A stretch of 64,000 nt of DNA from an uncultured Dehalococcoidia bacterium (GTDB lineage Bacteria > Chloroflexota > Dehalococcoidia > Lucifugimonadales > Lucifugimonadaceae), in assembly GCA_958295935.1 (NCBI GenBank), contig OY282385.1:1961545-2025544 (forward strand), given 5' to 3'. Both the position numbers and the translations under genes were made by a program. The notes beneath the pieces are model-generated. The model was not told the origin of the DNA. It was given only the letters and a program-made list of their open reading frames with translations, and searched no databases. Shown one piece after another: positions 27,813-35,956 of this stretch. Each line of letters opens with the position of its first letter. The first letter of the stretch is position 1.

Positions 27813-28006
27813 AGACAGTACCTCCGGATGTTTGACCTGCCTGGATCATATAGGCGCCGGCAGCGCGGTGACGCAGCGGGAGTGGACGGGGTAGGCCGTT
27901 TGGTGGCGGGATGGTCGCCTTCGCAGCGTTTTCTGGCTTGCGGCGGAATGACGGGGGAAGAGGGCTGCTCGACTGCCTGGGCGCGCCCCGGTCGATTGTC
28001 GTCTGT

Positions 28007-28963
28007 TTAACGCCCCTCATATCGGCAGCAACACCCGGCAAACATCACCCTTCCTTTGTTCTGGGGGGCAGCCAGGGCCTCCGCGCTGCTTGAGTAAGGC
28101 CCGTGCCACCAGTTATCGGGAAGGGGATCTGGCTTGCGGTTCTTGTAGTAGCGGCAGTATCCCTTGTGAATCTTGGACATACCGGTTGGTAGGTCGGTGT
28201 AGACGTAGAATTCTTCGCGCGACGTGCTTGGCGCGGGTGGAACTGGCGGATCCTGTCGCGGGGGCCGAGGGGCAGGTTCGGTAAACCGCGTCGGCGGGCG
28301 CGTAGTCGTATCCCGTAGCGGGGGCGGAGGGTCGGGTAGAGGTGGCGGGGCTGTGTCGGTCACGTCCCAGTTGGCGTAGAAGTCTTCCAGGCGCAGGCCG
28401 AATCGTCTGATAGAGGAAGTCAGTTCGACTCTGAGCGATTCGTACATGTCCTCAAGCAACTTCCGGTTGCCCCGGATTTGCTGAGCGGTGTATTTATTGA
28501 GGTCCAAAGACAGAACCTTGCCCTGCAGCTCTCCCTTCAACCACTCCCCAACGTCGTGCACGGTCACCCTATCGTCCTTGTCCATAGGCCGGATTTGGCG
28601 CAGCCTCTCGCACTGCTCCTGTACCAGCGCCAGCGTGAGGACTACTTCACCCGTGACGGAGGCGCTATCGGAAGTGAGCGCGGGGAAGTCGAGCGGAATA
28701 CGTCCGCCGTGCCTGGAGGGGTCGTCGGGCTCTGGCAGCCAGAAGGCCAATTTGAAGGGGGCCTTCGTCGTCACGTAGGTTTTTATCTGCCCTTTTGGAA
28801 GGCGCCTCTGACCACCTGAAAAGATGTCCCATATCGCGCCGTCGCGTATGATTATCCCGACGTGATGCGGGTCGACTGTAAAAAACTTTCGGCAACACCA
28901 ATCCCGCCGGACGTTCTTATCGCCGGGCCGGAATATCGTCTCGCTATCGCTCTCCCTGTTCAA
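28007..28963 (-). CDS. SPFH-like N-terminal domain, Pro-rich linker and C-terminal Ada-like Zn-ribbon module; paralogue 1 of 3.
   Basis: The N-terminal roughly 190 aa align with the N-domain of the 30786-33215 protein (PHHVGIIIRDG / PHELVVVIRDG; ...IRGNRKLLEDMYESLRVELTSSIRRFGLRLEDFYANWDVTD / ...LRGNEALLRSIYDSLRVELAATLSGYGFRLDNFFINWGLTD). The C-terminus is ...EEFYVYTDLPTGMSKIHKGYCRYYKNRKPDPLPDNWWHGPYSSSAEALAAPQNKGRVMFAGCCCRY. Confidence 0.5.
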   Translation of the reverse strand: MNRESDSETIFRPGDKNVRRDWCCRKFFTVDPHHVGIIIRDGAIWDIFSGGQRRLPKGQIKTYVTTKAPFKLAFWLPEPDDPSRHGGRIPLDFPALTSDSASVTGEVVLTLALVQEQCERLRQIRPMDKDDRVTVHDVGEWLKGELQGKVLSLDLNKYTAQQIRGNRKLLEDMYESLRVELTSSIRRFGLRLEDFYANWDVTDTAPPPLPDPPPPLRDTTTRPPTRFTEPAPRPPRQDPPVPPAPSTSREEFYVYTDLPTGMSKIHKGYCRYYKNRKPDPLPDNWWHGPYSSSAEALAAPQNKGRVMFAGCCCRYEGR

Positions 28964-29055
28964 GTTAGATTCCTTATCTCTGGGTAGGTGCAGTGGGATG
29001 TGGAGAACCGCTGGACGCGCCCCGGCCGATTGTGGTCTGTTCAGCTCCCATTACG

Positions 29056-29829
29056 TCAGCGACAGCGCTCGGCAAACGTCACCCTTCCTCTGTTCTGGGT
29101 GGCATCCCAGGCCTTCGCCTCGGCCTCCGCCTCACTTGAGTAAGGCCCGTGCCACCAGTTATCAGGAAGAGGATCTGGCTTACGGTTTTCGTAGTGGTAG
29201 CAGGGTCCCTTGTGAATCTTGGAGTTTGAACCGTCGGTGTAGACGTAGAATTTCTCTCGCGATGGGCTTGGCGCGGATGGAACTGGTGGATCCTGTTGCG
29301 GGGGCCGGGAGGCAGGCTCGGTAAACCGCGTCAGCGGACGCGTAGTCGTATCCCGTAGCGGGGGCGGGGAAGAGAGCCGGTCCCTGATTCTTTCTACCGC
29401 CTGCTTACTGTCGGATTCGTTGATGCGTCCGAGCAGGTCCGCGATGACGGTCACGCGGCTCCTGACATCCTCTATGTCCAGGTCGCTCTGTGAAGGATGC
29501 GCCGCTTTGTTCCGCGCATCGCGGATCATCCACAACATGTTCTTGACTATTTCGTCGTTCCAGAACTCCTGGCTGAAAATGTCGTTCCAGTACCCGTCTA
29601 CCAGTTTCGGAAAGTCGTTTATGTCGATAGATTCCTCAGCGCTGCCAGTGCGGCGGAGGTCATCTGAGAAATACTTGCCCCGACCACCTAGTTTGCCCTT
29701 TATAGCCTCCTCGATGTTCTTGCCTTTTACACGATTCAGGCATCGGACGATGAAAGGACGCATAGCGTAGCGGAATATGTCAAGCGCATCGTGGAGCGCT
29801 TGTTTGTTTGGATAAAGAGATTCTGTCAT
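29056..29829 (-). CDS. Swt1-type HEPN domain, Pro-rich linker and Ada-like Zn-ribbon module; paralogue 2 of 3.
   Basis: The ATG at 29827-29829 follows AGGAGCCAAAAAA. The HEPN motif is ...MIRDARNKAAHPSQSDLDIEDVRSRVTVIADLLGRI (Rx4H). The C-terminus is ...KFYVYTDGSNSKIHKGPCYHYENRKPDPLPDNWWHGPYSSEAEA...RVTFAERCR. The track ORF extends upstream to 29997 only because the frame stays open. Confidence 0.55.
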   Translation of the reverse strand: MTESLYPNKQALHDALDIFRYAMRPFIVRCLNRVKGKNIEEAIKGKLGGRGKYFSDDLRRTGSAEESIDINDFPKLVDGYWNDIFSQEFWNDEIVKNMLWMIRDARNKAAHPSQSDLDIEDVRSRVTVIADLLGRINESDSKQAVERIRDRLSSPPPLRDTTTRPLTRFTEPASRPPQQDPPVPSAPSPSREKFYVYTDGSNSKIHKGPCYHYENRKPDPLPDNWWHGPYSSEAEAEAKAWDATQNRGRVTFAERCR

Positions 29830-29977
29830 TTTTTTGGCTCCTACCTGATTGAGAGACTCGAATGGCGTTTGGACTGAATAAATTTTGGTCAGGGCAGTGC
29901 CGGGGCAAGGGGGAGTGGGACGTGGAGAACTGCTGAGCGCGCCCCGGTCGATTGTGGTCTGTTCCGCGCCCATTACG

Positions 29978-30682
29978 TCAGCGACAGCACCCGGCAAACA
30001 CCACCCTTCCTCTGTTCTGGGAGGCAGCCCGGGCCCCCGCCTCGCTTGAGTAAGGCCCGTGCCACCAGTTATCAGGAAGGGGGTTTGGCTTGCGGTTCTT
30101 GTAATAGCGGCAGGATGCCTTGTGAATCTTGGACATCCCGGTTGGTAGGTCGGTGTAGACGTGGAATCCCTCGCGCGACGTGCTTGGCGCGGGTGAAACT
30201 GGCGGATCCTGTCGCGGGGAAGAAAGCCGGTCCCTGATTCTTTCTACCGCCTGCTTACTGTCGGGTTCTTTGATGCGTCCGAGCAGGTTGGCGATGTCGG
30301 TCACGCGGCTCCTGACATCCTCTCTATCCAGGTCTTTCTGTGGAGGATGCGCCGCTTCGTTCCGCGCATCGACGATCGTCCGCAACGTGTTCTTGACCTT
30401 TCTCTCGCCCCTGAACTCCTGGCGGAAAATGTCGGTCCAGTACTCGTTTATAAGATCTGGAAAGTAGTTTATGTCGATAGATTCCTCGACGCTGCCAGTG
30501 CGGTAGAGGTTATTGGAGAATTCCCTGCTCCGAGCACCTTTAAGTTTTTCCTTTATAGCCTCCTCGGCGCTCTTGCCTTCGACACGATTCAGGCATCGGA
30601 CGATGAAGCGACGCATATCGTAGCGGAATATGTCAAACGCATCGTTGAGCGCTTGCTTGTTTGGGTAATAGTATTCTGTCAT
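29978..30682 (-). CDS. Swt1-type HEPN domain, Pro-rich linker and Ada-like Zn-ribbon module; paralogue 3 of 3.
   Basis: The ATG at 30680-30682 follows an identical duplicated 5' leader/RBS. It reads MTEYYYPNKQALNDAFDIFRYDMRRFIVRCLNRV...IVDARNEAAHPPQKDLDREDVRSRVTDIANLLGRI...KIHKASCRYYKNRKPNPLPDNWWHGPYSSEAGARAASQNRGRVVFAGCCR. Confidence 0.55.
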   Translation of the reverse strand: MTEYYYPNKQALNDAFDIFRYDMRRFIVRCLNRVEGKSAEEAIKEKLKGARSREFSNNLYRTGSVEESIDINYFPDLINEYWTDIFRQEFRGERKVKNTLRTIVDARNEAAHPPQKDLDREDVRSRVTDIANLLGRIKEPDSKQAVERIRDRLSSPRQDPPVSPAPSTSREGFHVYTDLPTGMSKIHKASCRYYKNRKPNPLPDNWWHGPYSSEAGARAASQNRGRVVFAGCCR

Positions 30683-30785
30683 TTTTTTGGCTCCTACCTG
30701 ATTGAGAGACTCGAATGGCGTTTGGACTGAATAAATTTTGGTCGGGGGTAGCACCGGGACACAGGGGGTGAATGGATGGCTGTTT

Positions 30786-33215
30786 TCACTGGAGCACGGT
30801 GGCTACCGCGGGGGAGGATAATACGTCTCCGCCCGTTTTGTAGCTCCATAGGAGCTTGCCTGAGGATTGGTCCAGCGCGTAGAGGTGATCGTCGTCCGAT
30901 CCTATGAACACGGTGCCGCGGTTCACCGCTGCGCTGGATCTCACGTCCCCCCGCGTCCGGTAGCGCCATAGCAGTTCACCTGTGACGGCGTCCAGCGCGT
31001 AGAGGTGGTCGTCGGTCGATCCGGCGTACACGACACCGTCGATCACCGACGGCCGATTCACGCTATCGCCTGTCTCGTATCGCCAACTCAGATCGCTCGT
31101 GCCGGCGTCCAGCGCGTAGAGGTGGTCGTCGCCAGATCCGGCGTACACGACTCCGTCGGCCACTGCGGGCGACGAGAAGCTGACGTAGTAGTCGCTGCTA
31201 CGGTATCTCCATAACGTGTCTCCAGTCGCCGCGTCTAGTGTGGACAGGTACCTGTCAGCCCTGTTTGCGCGCGCGGCGTACACGACTCCGTCGGCCACTG
31301 CGGGCGACGAGGAGAAGGAGCCGAGGAAGATGCCGCCGGGGCGGTATCGCCACAACAGGTCTCCGGTCGCCGCGTCAAGCGAGTAGAGGTAATCGTCGTT
31401 CGATACTATGAACACGACTCCGTCGGCCACCGCGGGTGAGGAGTGGACGTTGTCGCCGGTCTCGTATCGCCATAGCAGGTCTCCGGTCGCCGCATTGAGC
31501 GCGTAGAGATGGTCATCGGCTGATCCGGCGTACACGACTCCGTCGGCCAGCGCGGGCGAGGAGTGGACGTCGCCGCCGGTGCGGTATCGCCATAGCAGGT
31601 CTCCGGTCGCCGCGTCGAGCGCGTAGAGGTTGTTGTCGTACGACCCTACGTAGATGACGCCGTTGGCCGCTGCGGGCGAGGAATGCACCTCGCCGCCGGT
31701 CCGGTAACTCCAGCTCAGCTCGCCCGTTTCCGCGTCCAGCGCGTACAGGTACTTGTCGCCTGAGCCCACGTAAACGAGATCGCGCTCTGTGGGTACATGC
31801 GGCGTAGCAGTCGCAGTTGGAGTGAAAGTCGGGGTGGGTGAGGCAGTTGGCGTAGGCGTAGGAGTGGAAGTCGGCGTTGCGGTGGGTGGCGCGGTGGTCG
31901 GGGTCGGCGCGGCTGTTGGCGCAGGCGTTGGAATCGAAGTCGGGATTGGATTGGGCGGCGCGTTGGTCGCGGCCGTTGGCGCTGGAACGGCGGTTGGCAC
32001 TGGGCGCGTGGGAGTTGGAACCGAAGTCGGTGTTTGAGTGGGCGGCGCGTTGATCGCGCCCGTTGGTGTTGGAACAGTCGTTGGCGCTGCGCGCGCGGGA
32101 GTTGGAACCGAAGTCGGTGTTTGAGTGGGCGGCGCGTTGATCGCGCCCGTTGGTGTTGGAACAGTCGTTGGCGCTGCGCGCGCGGGAGTTGGAACCGAAG
32201 TCGGTGTTTGAGTGGACGGAGCGTTGGTCGCGGCTGTTGGGAGTGGAACAGTCGTCGGGGAGGGTGTCGGGGTATGGGCCGGCGTCGAGGGTATGACTAC
32301 GGGAGCGGGCGTGTTCGTGGGGATCTGCGCTGCGGCCTGATTTTGGGGTTCACTAATCGCGAGTCTGTCGTTTAGCCAGATCCCGAGGAAGATGCCGCCG
32401 GCCAGGAGAAGGAGGGCAAGTACCGCGAAGGCGGTGACTGCCGGGCTTCTGAAGCCTCGCCAGCCTCCCTTTCGTTGGGATTCCGCGCTGCGGTCTGCAC
32501 CGGATAGAGCGTCGAGTTCCCTTTTTCTCTGTTCCGCGCGCAGACGGGCCTGGTGACGCTGATCCTCGATGGAAGTGCGTTCGGCATCGGTCAGGCCCCA
32601 ATTGATGAAGAAGTTGTCGAGCCGGAAGCCGTAGCCCGACAGCGTGGCTGCGAGTTCGACCCTGAGCGAGTCGTATATCGAGCGCAGCAGGGCCTCGTTG
32701 CCGCGCAGTTCCGCGGCGGTGTGCTTGCTGAGTTCGTGTGCGACGACCTTGGCCAGCAGTTCGTCCTTGAGGTATTCGGCGACGTCCGCCACGCCTATGG
32801 CATCCCGTCCGCGCATGAAGGCGGGCAGCCGGTCGGCGTCCTCCAGGGTGACGGCGAGCCTGAGATTCACCTGCGCGGCTATGAGCTGTCCGTCGGCAGT
32901 GAGAGCGGGGATGCCCTGCGTATCCAGTTCGGACGGGCTGTCAGGGTCCTCGAGCCAGAAGGAGACGGTGAACGGAGAGGTGTCGGCCTGGAGCGCGCGC
33001 GTGCTGGGGCCGCTGCCGAGGAGCGCGCGCAGGAAGTCGCCGAGGCTTCTGGTGCTGCGCTTGCCCTCGGTGAAGATCTCGACGATCTTGCCGTCGCGGA
33101 TGACTACGACCAGCTCATGGGGTTCGGCGATGACGTTGCGCCCGAACCCGCGTAGATCCTTGCGGCCCAGGTAGGCCGCAACGGTATCTACTCCGAATCT
33201 CCGCCAGGAGGTCAT
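30786..33215 (-). CDS. Membrane protein with an N-terminal SPFH (band-7)-like domain, coiled coil, one TM helix, Pro/Thr repeat linker and a C-terminal PQQ-type (BamB-like) beta-propeller.
   Basis: The SPFH-like region reads ...ELRGNEALLRSIYDSLRVELAATLSGYGFRLDNFFINWGLTDAERTSIEDQRHQARLRAEQRKRE. The TM helix is AVTAFAVLALLLLAGGIFLGIWL. About 8 repeats follow of the type YLYALDAATGDLLWRYRTGGDVHSSPA. The ATG at 33213-33215 overlaps the upstream stop (TGAaATG); the track start 33236 is the alternative. Confidence 0.6.
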   Translation of the reverse strand: MTSWRRFGVDTVAAYLGRKDLRGFGRNVIAEPHELVVVIRDGKIVEIFTEGKRSTRSLGDFLRALLGSGPSTRALQADTSPFTVSFWLEDPDSPSELDTQGIPALTADGQLIAAQVNLRLAVTLEDADRLPAFMRGRDAIGVADVAEYLKDELLAKVVAHELSKHTAAELRGNEALLRSIYDSLRVELAATLSGYGFRLDNFFINWGLTDAERTSIEDQRHQARLRAEQRKRELDALSGADRSAESQRKGGWRGFRSPAVTAFAVLALLLLAGGIFLGIWLNDRLAISEPQNQAAAQIPTNTPAPVVIPSTPAHTPTPSPTTVPLPTAATNAPSTQTPTSVPTPARAAPTTVPTPTGAINAPPTQTPTSVPTPARAAPTTVPTPTGAINAPPTQTPTSVPTPTRPVPTAVPAPTAATNAPPNPIPTSIPTPAPTAAPTPTTAPPTATPTSTPTPTPTASPTPTFTPTATATPHVPTERDLVYVGSGDKYLYALDAETGELSWSYRTGGEVHSSPAAANGVIYVGSYDNNLYALDAATGDLLWRYRTGGDVHSSPALADGVVYAGSADDHLYALNAATGDLLWRYETGDNVHSSPAVADGVVFIVSNDDYLYSLDAATGDLLWRYRPGGIFLGSFSSSPAVADGVVYAARANRADRYLSTLDAATGDTLWRYRSSDYYVSFSSPAVADGVVYAGSGDDHLYALDAGTSDLSWRYETGDSVNRPSVIDGVVYAGSTDDHLYALDAVTGELLWRYRTRGDVRSSAAVNRGTVFIGSDDDHLYALDQSSGKLLWSYKTGGDVLSSPAVATVLQ
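32007..32270 (-). repeat. Perfect 90-bp tandem repeat (2 copies plus a degenerate third) within the Pro/Thr linker coding region of the SPFH-propeller gene.
   Basis: Positions 32007-32096 are identical to 32097-32186 (ggagttggaaccgaagtcggtgtttgagtgggcggcgcgttgatcgcgcccgttggtgttggaacagtcgttggcgctgcgcgcgcg). Each copy encodes PTQTPTSVPTPARAAPTTVPTPTGAINAP. Confidence 0.6.
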
Positions 33216-33216
33216 T

Positions 33217-33759
33217 TCAGCCTTGGGCCTTCTCACGCGCTGCCCGCTCGATGTCTCCCAGCGCGTTGTCGTAACCGGCTCCCCGGTAGAACTGCGTTTC
33301 CGAAGGGTCCCTGTCGAATATGCTGATGACCGTTTCGAGCTTGTTGTCCGACCCCTTGACCTTGACGGCTACCTCTTCCATCTGGCTTTCCAGCGCGGCC
33401 GCATCCATCTCATTGATGAGCTTCCAGATGCCGCGCTTCTGGAGATCCTTCTTCATGTTGATGATGTTGATGGTCTCGTCCAGAACCGATATCTGCGTAA
33501 TCACGCGCTGGATGTTGTCCTCCGCCCTGTCCTTGCGCTTTCGGGCTTCGCTCATCCTGTAAGCGGCGACCTGCCGCTCTGCGGAGTTCTTGCCCGGCTC
33601 CGAGGCTATGTCCAGGCGGCGGTCGTACTCCTCCTGCGCACGCCTGATGGTTAACAGCAGCCTGTCCTGCCTGACCTCCTGTCGCGTGCGCTCCTTGCGC
33701 AGGTCGTCGATCTTCAGGTCCTCGAGCTTCTTTGCCGTGCCAAATCCAAATAGTGCCAT
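33217..33759 (-). CDS. ESCRT-III / PspA (IM30) superfamily-like coiled-coil protein, 180 aa.
   Basis: It starts MALFGFGTAKKLEDLKIDDLRKERTRQEVRQ (ESCRT-III proteins begin M-x-LFG-(K/R)) and is predicted all-helical, with ...NIQRVITQISVLDETINIINMKKDLQKRG...MDAAALESQMEEV. It is translationally coupled to both neighbours. The family assignment is tentative. Confidence 0.45.
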   Translation of the reverse strand: MALFGFGTAKKLEDLKIDDLRKERTRQEVRQDRLLLTIRRAQEEYDRRLDIASEPGKNSAERQVAAYRMSEARKRKDRAEDNIQRVITQISVLDETINIINMKKDLQKRGIWKLINEMDAAALESQMEEVAVKVKGSDNKLETVISIFDRDPSETQFYRGAGYDNALGDIERAAREKAQG

Positions 33760-33760
33760 G

Positions 33761-34234
33761 TCATCTCCTTCTTCTTCTGATTACCTTGACGCTCTCGCCG
33801 TCATGGTCTTTCACGTTGGAAACGCTGATCTTCTTCTCCTGTCGGAGCTGCTCGACGACTTCATCGACGACGTTCTCCGGGAACTGCCCGACGAACTGAT
33901 CTATGACGAACACCTTGCGGCTGTCGTCGAGCAGCGCTGTCTCAATCTCGCGGCGGCAGGCGTCCAGCAGTTTTTGTCGCCTCTGGTACTCGGTGTCCTG
34001 CGGCTCCGCGGGCGGGACGAGGGGCTCTCTGCCGCGGGACACGTCCGGGCCGTGGTGCTGCCTCTCCAGCCATGCGTCTATCTCCGAGCGGCGGAAGCGC
34101 CACGTGGACCCGAGCTTGAACACGGGGATCTTCCCGGACTGCGCCCAGTCGTAGATGGTGCGCTCGGACATGTTGAGGTACCTGGCCACTTCCGGTATGG
34201 ACATGAGCGCCGGGGCGCTGTCGCTGCCGTTCAT
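33761..34234 (-). CDS. Excisionase-family (MerR-like HTH_17) DNA-binding protein with a C-terminal extension; the first gene of the operon.
   Basis: It contains MSIPEVARYLNMSERTIYDWAQSGKIPVFKLGSTWRFRRSEIDAWLE. GGAG lies 5 nt upstream of ATG 34234. Confidence 0.6.
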   Translation of the reverse strand: MNGSDSAPALMSIPEVARYLNMSERTIYDWAQSGKIPVFKLGSTWRFRRSEIDAWLERQHHGPDVSRGREPLVPPAEPQDTEYQRRQKLLDACRREIETALLDDSRKVFVIDQFVGQFPENVVDEVVEQLRQEKKISVSNVKDHDGESVKVIRRRRR

Positions 34235-34445
34235 TTCACTCCGTCGACTTGCTGCCGTTCACCGCGCCATACCGCGAGATTCACTAGAATGGTAGCATAA
34301 ACCGCAGAAAACATCAAGGACTGCGTAGAAAGGTAAAATTAAGTATTTCAGGGTGGATTTTAGCAAAGATTATGGGTTGTAGGTACGCAGCGCCGAGGGC
34401 AAGGGAGAGTGGGACGTGCTGGTGGTGACGGGAGAGGCAGGATCG

Positions 34446-34475
34446 TTGACCTGAGGGGGCGTGTGGACATATACT
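34446..34475 (+). promoter_or_regulatory. Putative sigma-70-like promoter (TTGACC, 18 nt spacer, TATACT) for the T-box leader and trpS.
   Basis: The -35 element TTGACC lies at 34446-34451 and the -10 element TATACT at 34470-34475. Confidence 0.35.
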
Positions 34476-34481
34476 CGAATT

Positions 34482-34790
34482 GATCTACGAAATTCGCAAA
34501 GGCTGCGAACGGGAGTAGTAGACTCCAGCACGGAACAGAGAGAGCCGGGGCAGGTGTGAGCCCGGTTTCACGGCTGGGGAGGAATGGACCCGCGAGCCGC
34601 AGGACGAACGTCGCTCTCAAGTTGGGAACGGCGAGTAGTCTGAGCCGGATTGGCCCCCGTTAGCAAGGCCCGGAGAACGTCCGCCGCAATCGGGCGGGAT
34701 CCGCACAAGAGATGTCCCGGCGCGCCGGGACAATCAGGGTGGCACCGCGGGAATGACCTCGCCCCTGCACAAGGGAGCGAGGTTTTTTTA
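34482..34790 (+). promoter_or_regulatory. T-box riboswitch leader with a Trp (UGG) specifier and an intrinsic terminator, controlling trpS.
   Basis: The T-box motif AAUCAGGGUGGCACCGCGG lies at 34732-34750. The terminator hairpin cctcgcccctgcacaagggagcgagg plus UUUUUUU lies at 34757-34789. Stem I has an AGAGA bulge (about 34540), and the specifier loop reads ggaAUGGAccc (UGG at 34585-34587, followed by a purine). Confidence 0.7.
34757..34790 (+). terminator. Rho-independent terminator of the T-box leader (the conditional attenuator).
   Basis: A GC-rich hairpin is followed by a 7-T run. Confidence 0.6.
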
Positions 34791-34897: not shown

Positions 34898-35956
34898 ATG
34901 ACGGCTAACAGCCCTGCCAACACACCGCCAAAAAGTAGACCAACGTCTGGCCGGCCGCGCATACTCACCGGCATCCGCCCCACCGGCGCGCTTCATCTTG
35001 GGCACTACGTCGGCGCGCTCAAGAACTGGGTGCGCCTGCAAGACGAATATGAGTGCTACTTCCTGATCGCCGACTACCAGGCTCTTGGAGACCACTTCCA
35101 TGAAATCGACCTGATCAGGGAATCGGTCATAGAAGTCACTCTCGACTTCCTGGCCGTGGGGCTGGATCCGGAGAAATCGACCTTCGTCGTCCAGAGCTAC
35201 GTACCGGAGCACGCCGAACTGGCTATGCTCCTGAGCTTCATCACGCAATTGGGTATGCTCGAACGCAATCCCACACTCAAGGCCGAACTCGATAGCCTGC
35301 CCGTGACCCACCGCACGGTGGGGTTCTACAACTACCCCATGAGCCAGGTGGCGGACATACTGTTGCCGCGGGCCCACCTGGTACCCGTGGGAGAGGATCA
35401 GGCTCCGCACGTCGAGATGACCAGGGAGGTGGCGCGCAAGTTCAATCGTATGTTCGGCGAGGTATTCCCGGAGCCGCAGACCCTCGTCGGCGAGGTGGGT
35501 CGGTTGGTGGGAACGGACGGCGCCGGAAAGATGAGCAAGAGCAGCGGAAACGTCATCATGCTTTCCGACGGCGAGGCGGACGTGAACGAGAAGGTGCGCA
35601 GTATGTTCACCGATCCCAGGAGAGTACGCGCCGATATTCCGGGTAGAGTCGAAGGCAACCCCTTGTTCGAGTACCACGATGCCTTCAACCCTGACACTGG
35701 CCAGGTTGACGAGTTCAAGGAGCGCTACAGGGCTGGAAAGGTGGGTGACGTAGAGGTCAAGAAAGCGCTGGCCCTGGCTATCAACCGTTTTCTCGACCCG
35801 ATCAGGGAACGCAGGGAGTACTACGAGCAGCGCCCCGGGCTGGTCGAGGATGCGATCATCTCCGGCGCAGAGCGGGCGAGCGCCATAGCCTCCGAGACCA
35901 TGATCATGGTGCGAGACGCCATGCGCATATCGTCATACACCTCGACGCGTCGATGA
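34898..35956 (+). CDS. trpS: Tryptophan--tRNA ligase.
   Basis: It has HLGH ([13 protein letters not shown]) and KMSKS class I aaRS motifs. Confidence 0.85.

Follow-up and report, generated by a model that had tools for sequence, protein, structure and literature searches.

The window analysed here, a stretch of 64,000 nucleotides (nt; 64 kb) of contig OY282385.1 from an uncultured Dehalococcoidia bacterium (assembly GCA_958295935.1), carries on its minus strand a head-to-tail cluster of six genes, numbered G1 to G6 in transcription order, which encode an excisionase-type helix-turn-helix (HTH) regulator, a small helical protein, two SPFH-type proteins and two predicted HEPN RNases. The cluster is a member of a rare, previously undescribed bacterial locus family, found mainly in Dehalococcoidia and SAR202. 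An earlier reading of the bare sequence (the original prediction) had claimed six consecutive minus-strand genes, and all six open reading frames (ORFs) were found between positions 28007 and 34234:

33761-34234, minus strand: G1, 157 amino acids (aa)
33217-33759, minus strand: G2, 180 aa
30786-33215, minus strand: G3, 809 aa counted from the ATG
29978-30682, minus strand: G4, 234 aa
29056-29829, minus strand: G5, 257 aa
28007-28963, minus strand: G6, 318 aa

Four of the five junctions had been described as tightly coupled; only two are, G1/G2 (TGAcATG) and G2/G3 (TGAaATG), both with 1-nt gaps. The remaining genes are separated by spacers of 103 nt (G3/G4), 148 nt (G4/G5) and 92 nt (G5/G6), and the distal genes G4-G6 are without translational coupling.

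The cluster was compared with about 40 related loci, designated here by the letter L and a number, in a census made by BLAST and with locally built hidden Markov models (HMMs). G2 has 19 homologues in 5.8e9 clustered proteins, and a profile search returned 81 matches in 1.84e9 representatives. Among 185,579 species genomes, the family occupies 17 loci, all from Dehalococcoidia, SAR202 or Chloroflexota metagenome-assembled genomes; one distant member comes from Candidatus Sumerlaeota, and a metagenome scan with a narrower alignment gave three loci. The order HTH_17, G2, SPFH-N (the family of the G3 N-domain) was found in 17 distinct loci, one of them marine and with a G2 homologue of only 24% identity. 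Homologues thus co-occur in other genomes. The conserved unit shrinks from the six genes originally proposed to the triad HTH_17/G2/SPFH-N, with HEPN as an accessory. The conservation of this order supports a functional link between G1, G2 and the SPFH proteins.

G2 homologues occur in three contexts. In context (i), G2 stands with SPFH proteins. In context (ii), that of a distant subfamily, the gene for a G2-like protein with a conserved acidic C-terminal tail (ARESGxVxEE) has that of a long HTH_17 protein on one side and, on the other, that of a single AAA ATPase of the classic type (PF00004, 5e-32), which is 36% identical to the AAA domain of yeast Vps4 and finds its best single-domain PDB match in katanin. 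No MIT domain was detected in this AAA partner by PDB profile search or by hhalign, in which a reversed-sequence control scored equal. A protein with SPFH-N and a coiled coil follows the ATPase, carrying Trypsin_2 and a zinc ribbon in L035-L037. Wherever upstream sequence is available in contexts (i) and (ii), a G1 orthologue lies immediately upstream of the G2 homologue, and the two genes are always adjacent, with gaps of 1-4 nt. In context (iii), represented by ‘solo’ G2 genes (L018:2700-7860, L019 and L022), there is no HTH or SPFH neighbour; G2 heads a conserved operon encoding two multi-transmembrane proteins, a coiled-coil protein of 346 aa, a HisKA_3 kinase with a membrane domain paralogous to the two multi-transmembrane proteins, and a NarL-type regulator. 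By analogy, each of the three contexts mirrors a known PspA or ESCRT-III layout.

In the region L035-L037:1200-13800, the HTH_17 protein has 526 aa and zinc (Zn) fingers, and is followed by the G2-like protein, the AAA ATPase and the SPFH-N protein with coiled coil, Trypsin_2 and Zn ribbon. Upstream lie a ThiF/E1-like gene and genes for a JAB-like protein (HSHP...S..D), a leucine-rich repeat (LRR) protein and a 727-aa coiled-coil transmembrane (TM) protein; downstream are a transposase, an HNH gene and a DUF4011 helicase. Overall, the neighbourhood resembles a defence island.

The regulator G1 had been read as an excisionase-type HTH protein, and the assignment is borne out by an HTH_17 domain at aa 10-59 (nt 34058-34207; Pfam, 5e-20) that belongs to the ‘excisionase family’ of NCBIfam (TIGR01764, 59.8 bits versus a cutoff of 28.8). 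The C-terminal domain of about 95 aa has no assigned fold. In a PADLOC-DB 2.0 scan, the HTH resembles MAD1 (3.5e-10); in the search that gave TIGR01764, MAD1 scores 76.3 bits, under its cutoff of 80. Upstream of G1, one promoter-like feature was read from the sequence:

34289-34317, minus strand: putative sigma70-like promoter, TTGATG-N17-TACCAT, some 55 nt before the ATG of G1

This may be the promoter of the cluster. In twelve related loci, the HTH-coding region is preceded at 55-95 nt by a stronger promoter-like sequence, TTGACA-N17-CATTAT. The copy in the window is degenerate and obtains no score in the position weight matrix (PWM) built from the related loci, which finds no good site upstream of the window G1. 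The best PWM match in the whole window lies inside G4 (30442-30483, minus strand, TCGACA-N18-TTATAA type), with a score of 16.8 against a window mean of -36 and a standard deviation of 10; it is probably a chance occurrence in a low-GC stretch, and could otherwise be an internal promoter of the distal genes.

G2 is predicted to be all-helical and begins MALFGFG. An AlphaFold2 model built from a 43-sequence alignment (pLDDT 82.8) has helices at aa 17-52, 59-109, 111-117, 120-148 and 161-179, that is, a long alpha1/alpha2 hairpin (17-52 and 59-109) followed by three shorter helices. The top PDB match of the model in Foldseek is a subunit of the CHMP1B filament (probability 0.89, E 0.33), and the predicted fold is compatible with ESCRT-III, not diagnostic of it. 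At the sequence level, G2 has no match in Pfam, NCBIfam or PADLOC. Profile alignment by hhalign, against five ESCRT-III sequences, PspA and tropomyosin, placed G2 residues 115-150 in register with alpha4 of CHMP4B, a weak match (P=0.0014, 18% probability) and the only one to come out; PspA gave nothing.

Two features of the G2 sequence fit a membrane-binding polymer. The first is the N-terminus, conserved across the family as M-x-x-[LF]-G-F-G; CHMPs, PspA and Vipp1 begin with the similar MGLFG. The second is an asymmetry of charge, with a net +6 on the hairpin and -5 on the tail of G2 (family means +2.8 and -7.0); a basic hairpin with an acidic tail characterises 30 of the 43 members of the family, which in this respect resemble Snf7-type proteins and differ from PspA. 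The ESCRT-III/PspA-like identity originally suggested for G2 thus finds support in the predicted fold and the genomic context, and none in a sequence-profile match. Overall, G2 probably behaves as an ESCRT-III/PspA-type polymer; the strongest argument for an ESCRT-III-like protein, made by analogy, is its genomic context, and membership of the ESCRT-III/PspA superfamily is unproven.

The third member of the triad, G3, was predicted to combine an SPFH domain, a TM helix, a Pro/Thr linker and an 8-blade propeller in 809 aa, and all of these parts were found:

32517-33131, minus strand: cytoplasmic SPFH domain of G3
32373-32441, minus strand: TM helix of G3, aa 259-281
31788-32342, minus strand: Pro/Thr stalk of G3, 185 aa
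30789-31787, minus strand: 8-blade PQQ/BamB-like beta-propeller of G3, eight repeats read from the sequence

In Pfam, the N-terminal 240 aa match Band_7 with 31.5 bits (cutoff 23.6) and the propeller matches PQQ_2 (8e-91). Because basic residues lie on the N-side of the TM helix, the SPFH domain is predicted to be inside the cell and the propeller outside. The stalk is encoded by four tandem 87-nt repeats (31816-32250, minus strand), the best three of which are 82-84% identical, suggesting length variation of the extracellular stalk. G6, originally described as a second SPFH-like protein, is a soluble SPFH-N paralogue (domain at nt 28349-28879) with a Pro-rich linker (nt 28211-28354). Its Band_7 score of 18.9 bits falls under the Pfam cutoff of 23.6; the local family HMM (8e-81) places it clearly, as a paralogue, in the family of the G3 N-domain, whose members reach Band_7 scores of up to 43 bits. 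A homologue search with G6 returned only proteins of the window locus and of its sister locus, and G6 is 96% identical to its L024 orthologue, with a ratio of nonsynonymous to synonymous substitution rates (dN/dS) of 0.21 (small samples). The canonical SPFH order, with the membrane anchor N-terminal to the SPFH domain, is found in neither protein: the sole TM helix of G3 lies behind its SPFH domain, and G6 has zero TM helices.

SPFH-N proteins often occur in two or three paralogous copies per locus, and their C-termini vary from locus to locus. A TM helix with Pro/Thr stalk and PQQ propeller, ankyrin repeats, a TM helix with Excalibur and an unassigned beta domain, SBP_bac_5, PKD-like domains, a Cys/His module and Trypsin_2 were all found in this position, and some SPFH-N proteins carry an N-terminal Ser/Thr kinase together with LRR or other domains outside. 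In SAR202-type loci (L016:10554-12977 and L017:1484-6910), a Pkinase domain (5e-52) forms the N-terminus of an SPFH-N protein with large extracellular parts, which in L017 include LRR-like repeats, a design of the type kinase-SPFH-TM-sensor. L001 and L002, contigs of one sample, have identical G1-G2 genes followed by different downstream cassettes. Since these cassettes, as well as the content of L024, differ, the distal part of the locus turns over quickly, apparently by recombination at a repeated module and its 3' element.

This module is found at the C-termini of G4, G5 and G6. The features of the distal genes are:

30683-30743, minus strand: 61-nt leader and ribosome-binding site of G4, identical to the G5 leader at 29830-29890
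30272-30640, minus strand: HEPN domain of G4, with DARNEAAHP at 30344-30370
29981-30166, minus strand: Cys/His module of G4
29422-29787, minus strand: HEPN domain of G5, with DARNKAAHP at 29494-29520
29059-29250, minus strand: Cys/His module of G5
28010-28210, minus strand: Cys/His module of G6
27977-28007, minus strand: repeated 3' element (ACAGACCACAATCGACCGGGGCGCG...), after the stop codon of a Zn-module ORF

G4 and G5 had been claimed as two Swt1-type HEPN proteins with an R-x4-H motif. Both exceed the Pfam cutoff of 27.5 for HEPN_Swt1 (40.3 bits for G4, 41.2 bits for G5) and have intact motifs (RNEAAH in G4, RNKAAH in G5), on which grounds they are predicted HEPN RNases. G5 is 73% identical to G4, with a dN/dS of 1.02 over the HEPN domain; pairwise values among G4, G5 and the L024 copy range from 0.94 to 1.36 (small samples), and the catalytic motif is retained in every HEPN copy. 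The original observation that the HEPN genes are lower in guanine-plus-cytosine (GC) content than their surroundings also stands, with 0.51-0.57 versus about 0.62-0.66.

The common Cys/His module is about 65 aa long and 75-82% identical among the three proteins; in G5 it is preceded by a Pro-rich linker. The common module of the last three proteins was therefore described correctly, and it is the label of an Ada-like Zn ribbon that fails: there is no match in Pfam, including Ada_Zn_binding (PF02805), or in the PDB, apart from a weak DUF6233 signal, and in an hhalign comparison with Ada-N the metal ligands are in register without significance (P=0.03). The module of relatives has the form H-x3-C...C-x2-C-x-P; in the window, the copies terminate with GCCR, GCCCRYEGR and, in G5, ERCR, the last Cys pair being degenerate. 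Further copies of the 3' element ACAGACCACAATCGACCGGGGCGCG... lie at 29011-29055 and 29914-29977, so that one stands behind each Zn-module stop; the element marks the segmental duplications or the recombination by which the Zn module was spread. The leaders of G4 and G5 are 100% identical across 61 nt, and the predicted RNA of this common leader is unstructured (z=+1.4). The leaders and 3' repeats were considered as structured RNAs and rejected, shuffled sequences being more structured.

A search of 5.8e9 proteins gave five members of the HEPN-Zn family of G4, and G4, G5 and G6 account for three of them. Combining the protein search with loci fetched otherwise, HEPN-Zn genes were found in four loci (the window locus, L024, L011 and L025), always beside the HTH_17-G2 core. 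The same module ends SPFH-N proteins, namely G6 and a 579-aa protein of L011; in L003 and L004, it lies in another reading frame downstream of an SPFH-N ORF and overlaps it. The two regions concerned (L003:10556-11541 and L004:10497-12355) may hold SPFH-N-Zn genes that are frameshifted or in decay, or may be misassembled. In L024:1-3800, whose flanks are 98% identical to those of the window locus, there are one intact HEPN-Zn gene, an ORF for the Zn module only and the G6 orthologue; this gene content makes the HEPN pair of the window either a recent gain or, in the relative, a loss under way. We favour HEPN-Zn as a specific but optional accessory that would be docked via the common module, and leave a residual chance that it is a passenger or a decaying element.

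Within the window, trpS and trpEGD lie on one side of the cluster and S9 and M48 peptidases and pheST on the other. A T-box leader (34496-34769, plus strand) precedes the tryptophanyl-tRNA synthetase gene (34898-35956), with 76.8 bits and E=1e-15, under the Rfam gathering score of 93, and with a sigma70-like promoter match at 34446-34475; it is the only match of an Rfam scan around the cluster. In other genomes, some related loci adjoin PD-T4-4/PDC-M47-like, ThsB-like TIR, Shedu, SIR2 and E1-like genes, as well as toxin-antitoxin-type genes (HigB/HTH_3, Fic, PIN, BrnA and UPF0175 by Pfam annotation). An origin from a mobile element was rejected, as G2 has no relatives in phage or plasmid collections and no integrase or transposase adjoins the window locus. 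Membrane-remodelling proteins have precedents in phage defence, in the conjugation of PspA and a CBASS cyclase (PMC11153139) and in DynA (PMC8844932); no SPFH-based defence system was found in the literature searched. A defence role is plausible.

Taken together, we read the cluster, with a probability of about 0.5, as a module for membrane scaffolding or surveillance that is restricted to its lineage and has HEPN RNases for accessory outputs. Its core would have three parts: the HTH_17 regulator G1, controlling the operon and possibly held or titrated by G2 as PspF is by PspA; G2, of a 175-200-aa helical-hairpin type, as an ESCRT-III/PspA-like polymer on the inner face of the membrane; and one or more cytoplasmic N-terminal SPFH scaffolds fused to a freely exchangeable C-terminal part. 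G3 would form SPFH rings under the membrane, anchored via the single TM helix, with the propeller on its long Pro/Thr stalk acting outside as a ligand- or damage-sensing arm, and G2 would assemble with or around these rings via the hydrophobic MALFGFG N-terminus. G6 and the two HEPN proteins may dock to the same partner through the Cys/His module, whose presence on both suggests that the HEPN RNases are the lineage-specific output. Perturbation of the membrane assembly would then release or activate the HEPN RNases, leading to RNA cleavage and growth arrest, possibly abortive infection. The idea in the original prediction of a phage-shock-like sensor coupled to RNase effectors is compatible with these sequence data.

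Several observations weigh against this reading. Neither Snf7 (PF03357) nor PspA_IM30 (PF04012) matches G2 or any of the 43 full-length family members, and sequence and profile searches of the PDB with G2 were both empty. By ORF list and Pfam, the window cluster is without an AAA ATPase; PADLOC-DB 2.0 gives no meaningful match for G2-G6, and the locus sits between housekeeping genes. HEPN is present in four family loci only and missing from most, and its dN/dS of about 1 could equally be read as relaxed constraint. The degenerate terminal Cys pair makes metal binding by the window modules uncertain, and because G4, G5 and G6 have spacers of their own (92-148 nt), their co-transcription with the core is presumed only.

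A stronger version of the membrane-surveillance reading is conceivable, and we consider it rather unlikely: a bacterial ESCRT-type immune or surveillance device in which the G2 family, as a hitherto unrecognised ESCRT-III-like family with a Vps4-like AAA ATPase at its service in some lineages, would assemble with SPFH cages, and HEPN RNases would be recruited via the Cys/His module. Of the exchangeable SPFH ends, the propeller, LRR and SBP would then sense outside the cell and the trypsin and kinase act as effectors inside it, and membrane perturbation by phage or stress would result in RNA cleavage and growth arrest.

Many of the same facts could be turned towards Psp/Lia-like envelope maintenance or membrane-protein quality control, an alternative we consider unlikely. 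G2 and the SPFH proteins would here stabilise or repair the membrane or organise proteolysis, and the HEPN-Zn genes would be unrelated selfish or toxin-like insertions spread by recombination at the Zn-module repeat. PspA-YdjI and SPFH-protease pairings provide precedents (Ravi et al. 2024, PMC11237479), to which the SPFH-Trypsin_2 fusion in a related locus, the Lia-like context of the solo G2 genes and the housekeeping flanks of the window locus can be added; the HEPN genes, with their lower GC, own leaders and repeat-bounded duplications, look the part of insertions, the close relative L024 is already minus one of them, and a dN/dS of about 1 would be compatible with decay. However, HEPN-Zn proteins were found nowhere but beside these loci, every copy retains its catalytic motif, and the C-terminal module that they have in common with SPFH components (G6 and the L011 protein) argues for physical integration. 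The family is also too rare and patchy for a housekeeping function, with 81 matches in 1.84e9 representatives and 17 of 185,579 species genomes.

The invariable adjacency of G1 and G2 over gaps of a few nucleotides, together with the missing Snf7/PspA profile match, would also suit a G2 that is not ESCRT-III-like and serves the HTH_17 regulator as a generic coiled-coil partner, an anti-activator or co-repressor, in a regulated cassette array of polymorphic surface and cytoplasmic proteins that all have an SPFH-like oligomerisation domain. This is quite unlikely in view of the solo G2 genes, which have no HTH partner, of the AAA-linked subfamily with its conserved acidic tail beside a classic AAA ATPase, and of the hydrophobic N-terminus and charge asymmetry, which fit membrane-binding polymers.

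Very unlikely is an ESCRT-like sorting, vesicle-forming or surface-organising system akin to archaeal ‘adaptin-type’ loci, in which propeller, LRR, SBP or Excalibur domains would bind cargo or ligands and G2 (with AAA in relatives) would bud or shape the membrane: parts of archaeal ESCRT variants do recur in these loci (Makarova et al. 2024, PMC10936438), but an AAA ATPase is missing from the window clade, it is not obvious what HEPN RNases and a trypsin protease would do in sorting, adaptin-like and ESCRT-I/II components are absent, and the homology of G2 to ESCRT-III is itself unproven.

If G2 truly belongs to the ESCRT-III superfamily, it would represent a third bacterial branch beyond PspA and Vipp1, invisible to current profiles, and coupled in nearly all lineages to SPFH scaffolds and in some of them to a lone AAA ATPase of the classic type. 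So far, pairings of ESCRT-III-type and SPFH proteins are on record only from PspA-YdjI of B. subtilis and from the archaeal ESCRT variants. The modularity of the SPFH-N proteins, combined with a common docking module, offers a testable model for scaffolds that recruit sensors and effectors, and the HEPN output, if true, would tie membrane-integrity sensing to RNA-level growth arrest, a link undescribed for defence systems. The hosts of the family are abundant uncultured marine and subsurface Dehalococcoidia/SAR202, in which envelope-stress and antiviral responses are barely known.

The best reading of the cluster is as a variation on the PspA-SPFH and archaeal ESCRT-SPFH themes, with an unusual HEPN add-on. 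The precedent of PspA, SPFH and Zn-ribbon proteins invoked in the original prediction exists in the ydjFGHI(L) operon of B. subtilis, where PspA stands beside the SPFH protein YdjI, and wider PspA-Band-7 neighbourhoods are known (Ravi et al. 2024, PMC11237479; Scholz et al. 2021, PMC8581546). Like the ydj operon, the window cluster places a small helical protein of ESCRT-III type (by prediction, in the case of G2) beside an SPFH/Band_7 protein, has partners with putative Zn-binding C-terminal modules, and has a proposed site of action at the inner face of the membrane. In contrast to ydj, G2 is unrecognisable as PspA_IM30, an HTH_17 protein of excisionase type acts as regulator, there are no equivalents of YdjG and YdjH, and HEPN RNases are added; the SPFH domain is N-terminal and cytoplasmic, followed by a TM helix and then by hypervariable extracellular or cytoplasmic C-termini.

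Archaeal ESCRT variants (Meth_adaptin, Halo_adaptin and the main clades) have a winged-helix/HTH protein upstream of ESCRT-III, a Vps4-like ATPase, SPFH proteins with coiled coil and Zn ribbon, PQQ-like propellers and Ser/Thr kinases (Makarova et al. 2024, PMC10936438). Loci of the G2 family likewise combine SPFH with coiled coil and Zn ribbon, PQQ-type propellers and Ser/Thr kinases, and the G2-like gene of the distant subfamily is followed immediately by one for a single AAA ATPase of the classic type. Unlike the archaeal systems, these loci are bacterial (Dehalococcoidia, with one Sumerlaeota member), have no detectable MIT domain and no adaptin, ESCRT-I or ESCRT-II parts, and include HEPN and trypsin effector-like domains; the window clade is without the ATPase.

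Two further systems resemble parts of the family. The G2-headed operon of L018, L019 and L022, with its TM proteins and HisKA_3/NarL pair, is reminiscent of the Firmicutes Lia system (LiaIH-LiaFSR), although the solo operons have no Pfam match to LiaI, LiaF or PspA and their layout differs from that of the window cluster. G4 and G5, for their part, resemble HEPN abortive-infection or toxin modules (Swt1-like, RiboL-PSP and AbiD/F-type) in that they are small, fast-evolving, lower-GC genes with an intact R-N-x3-H motif. Unlike such modules, they have no adjoining antitoxin-like (MNT) gene and no PADLOC match, and are instead fused to a unique Cys/His module that they have in common with SPFH proteins.

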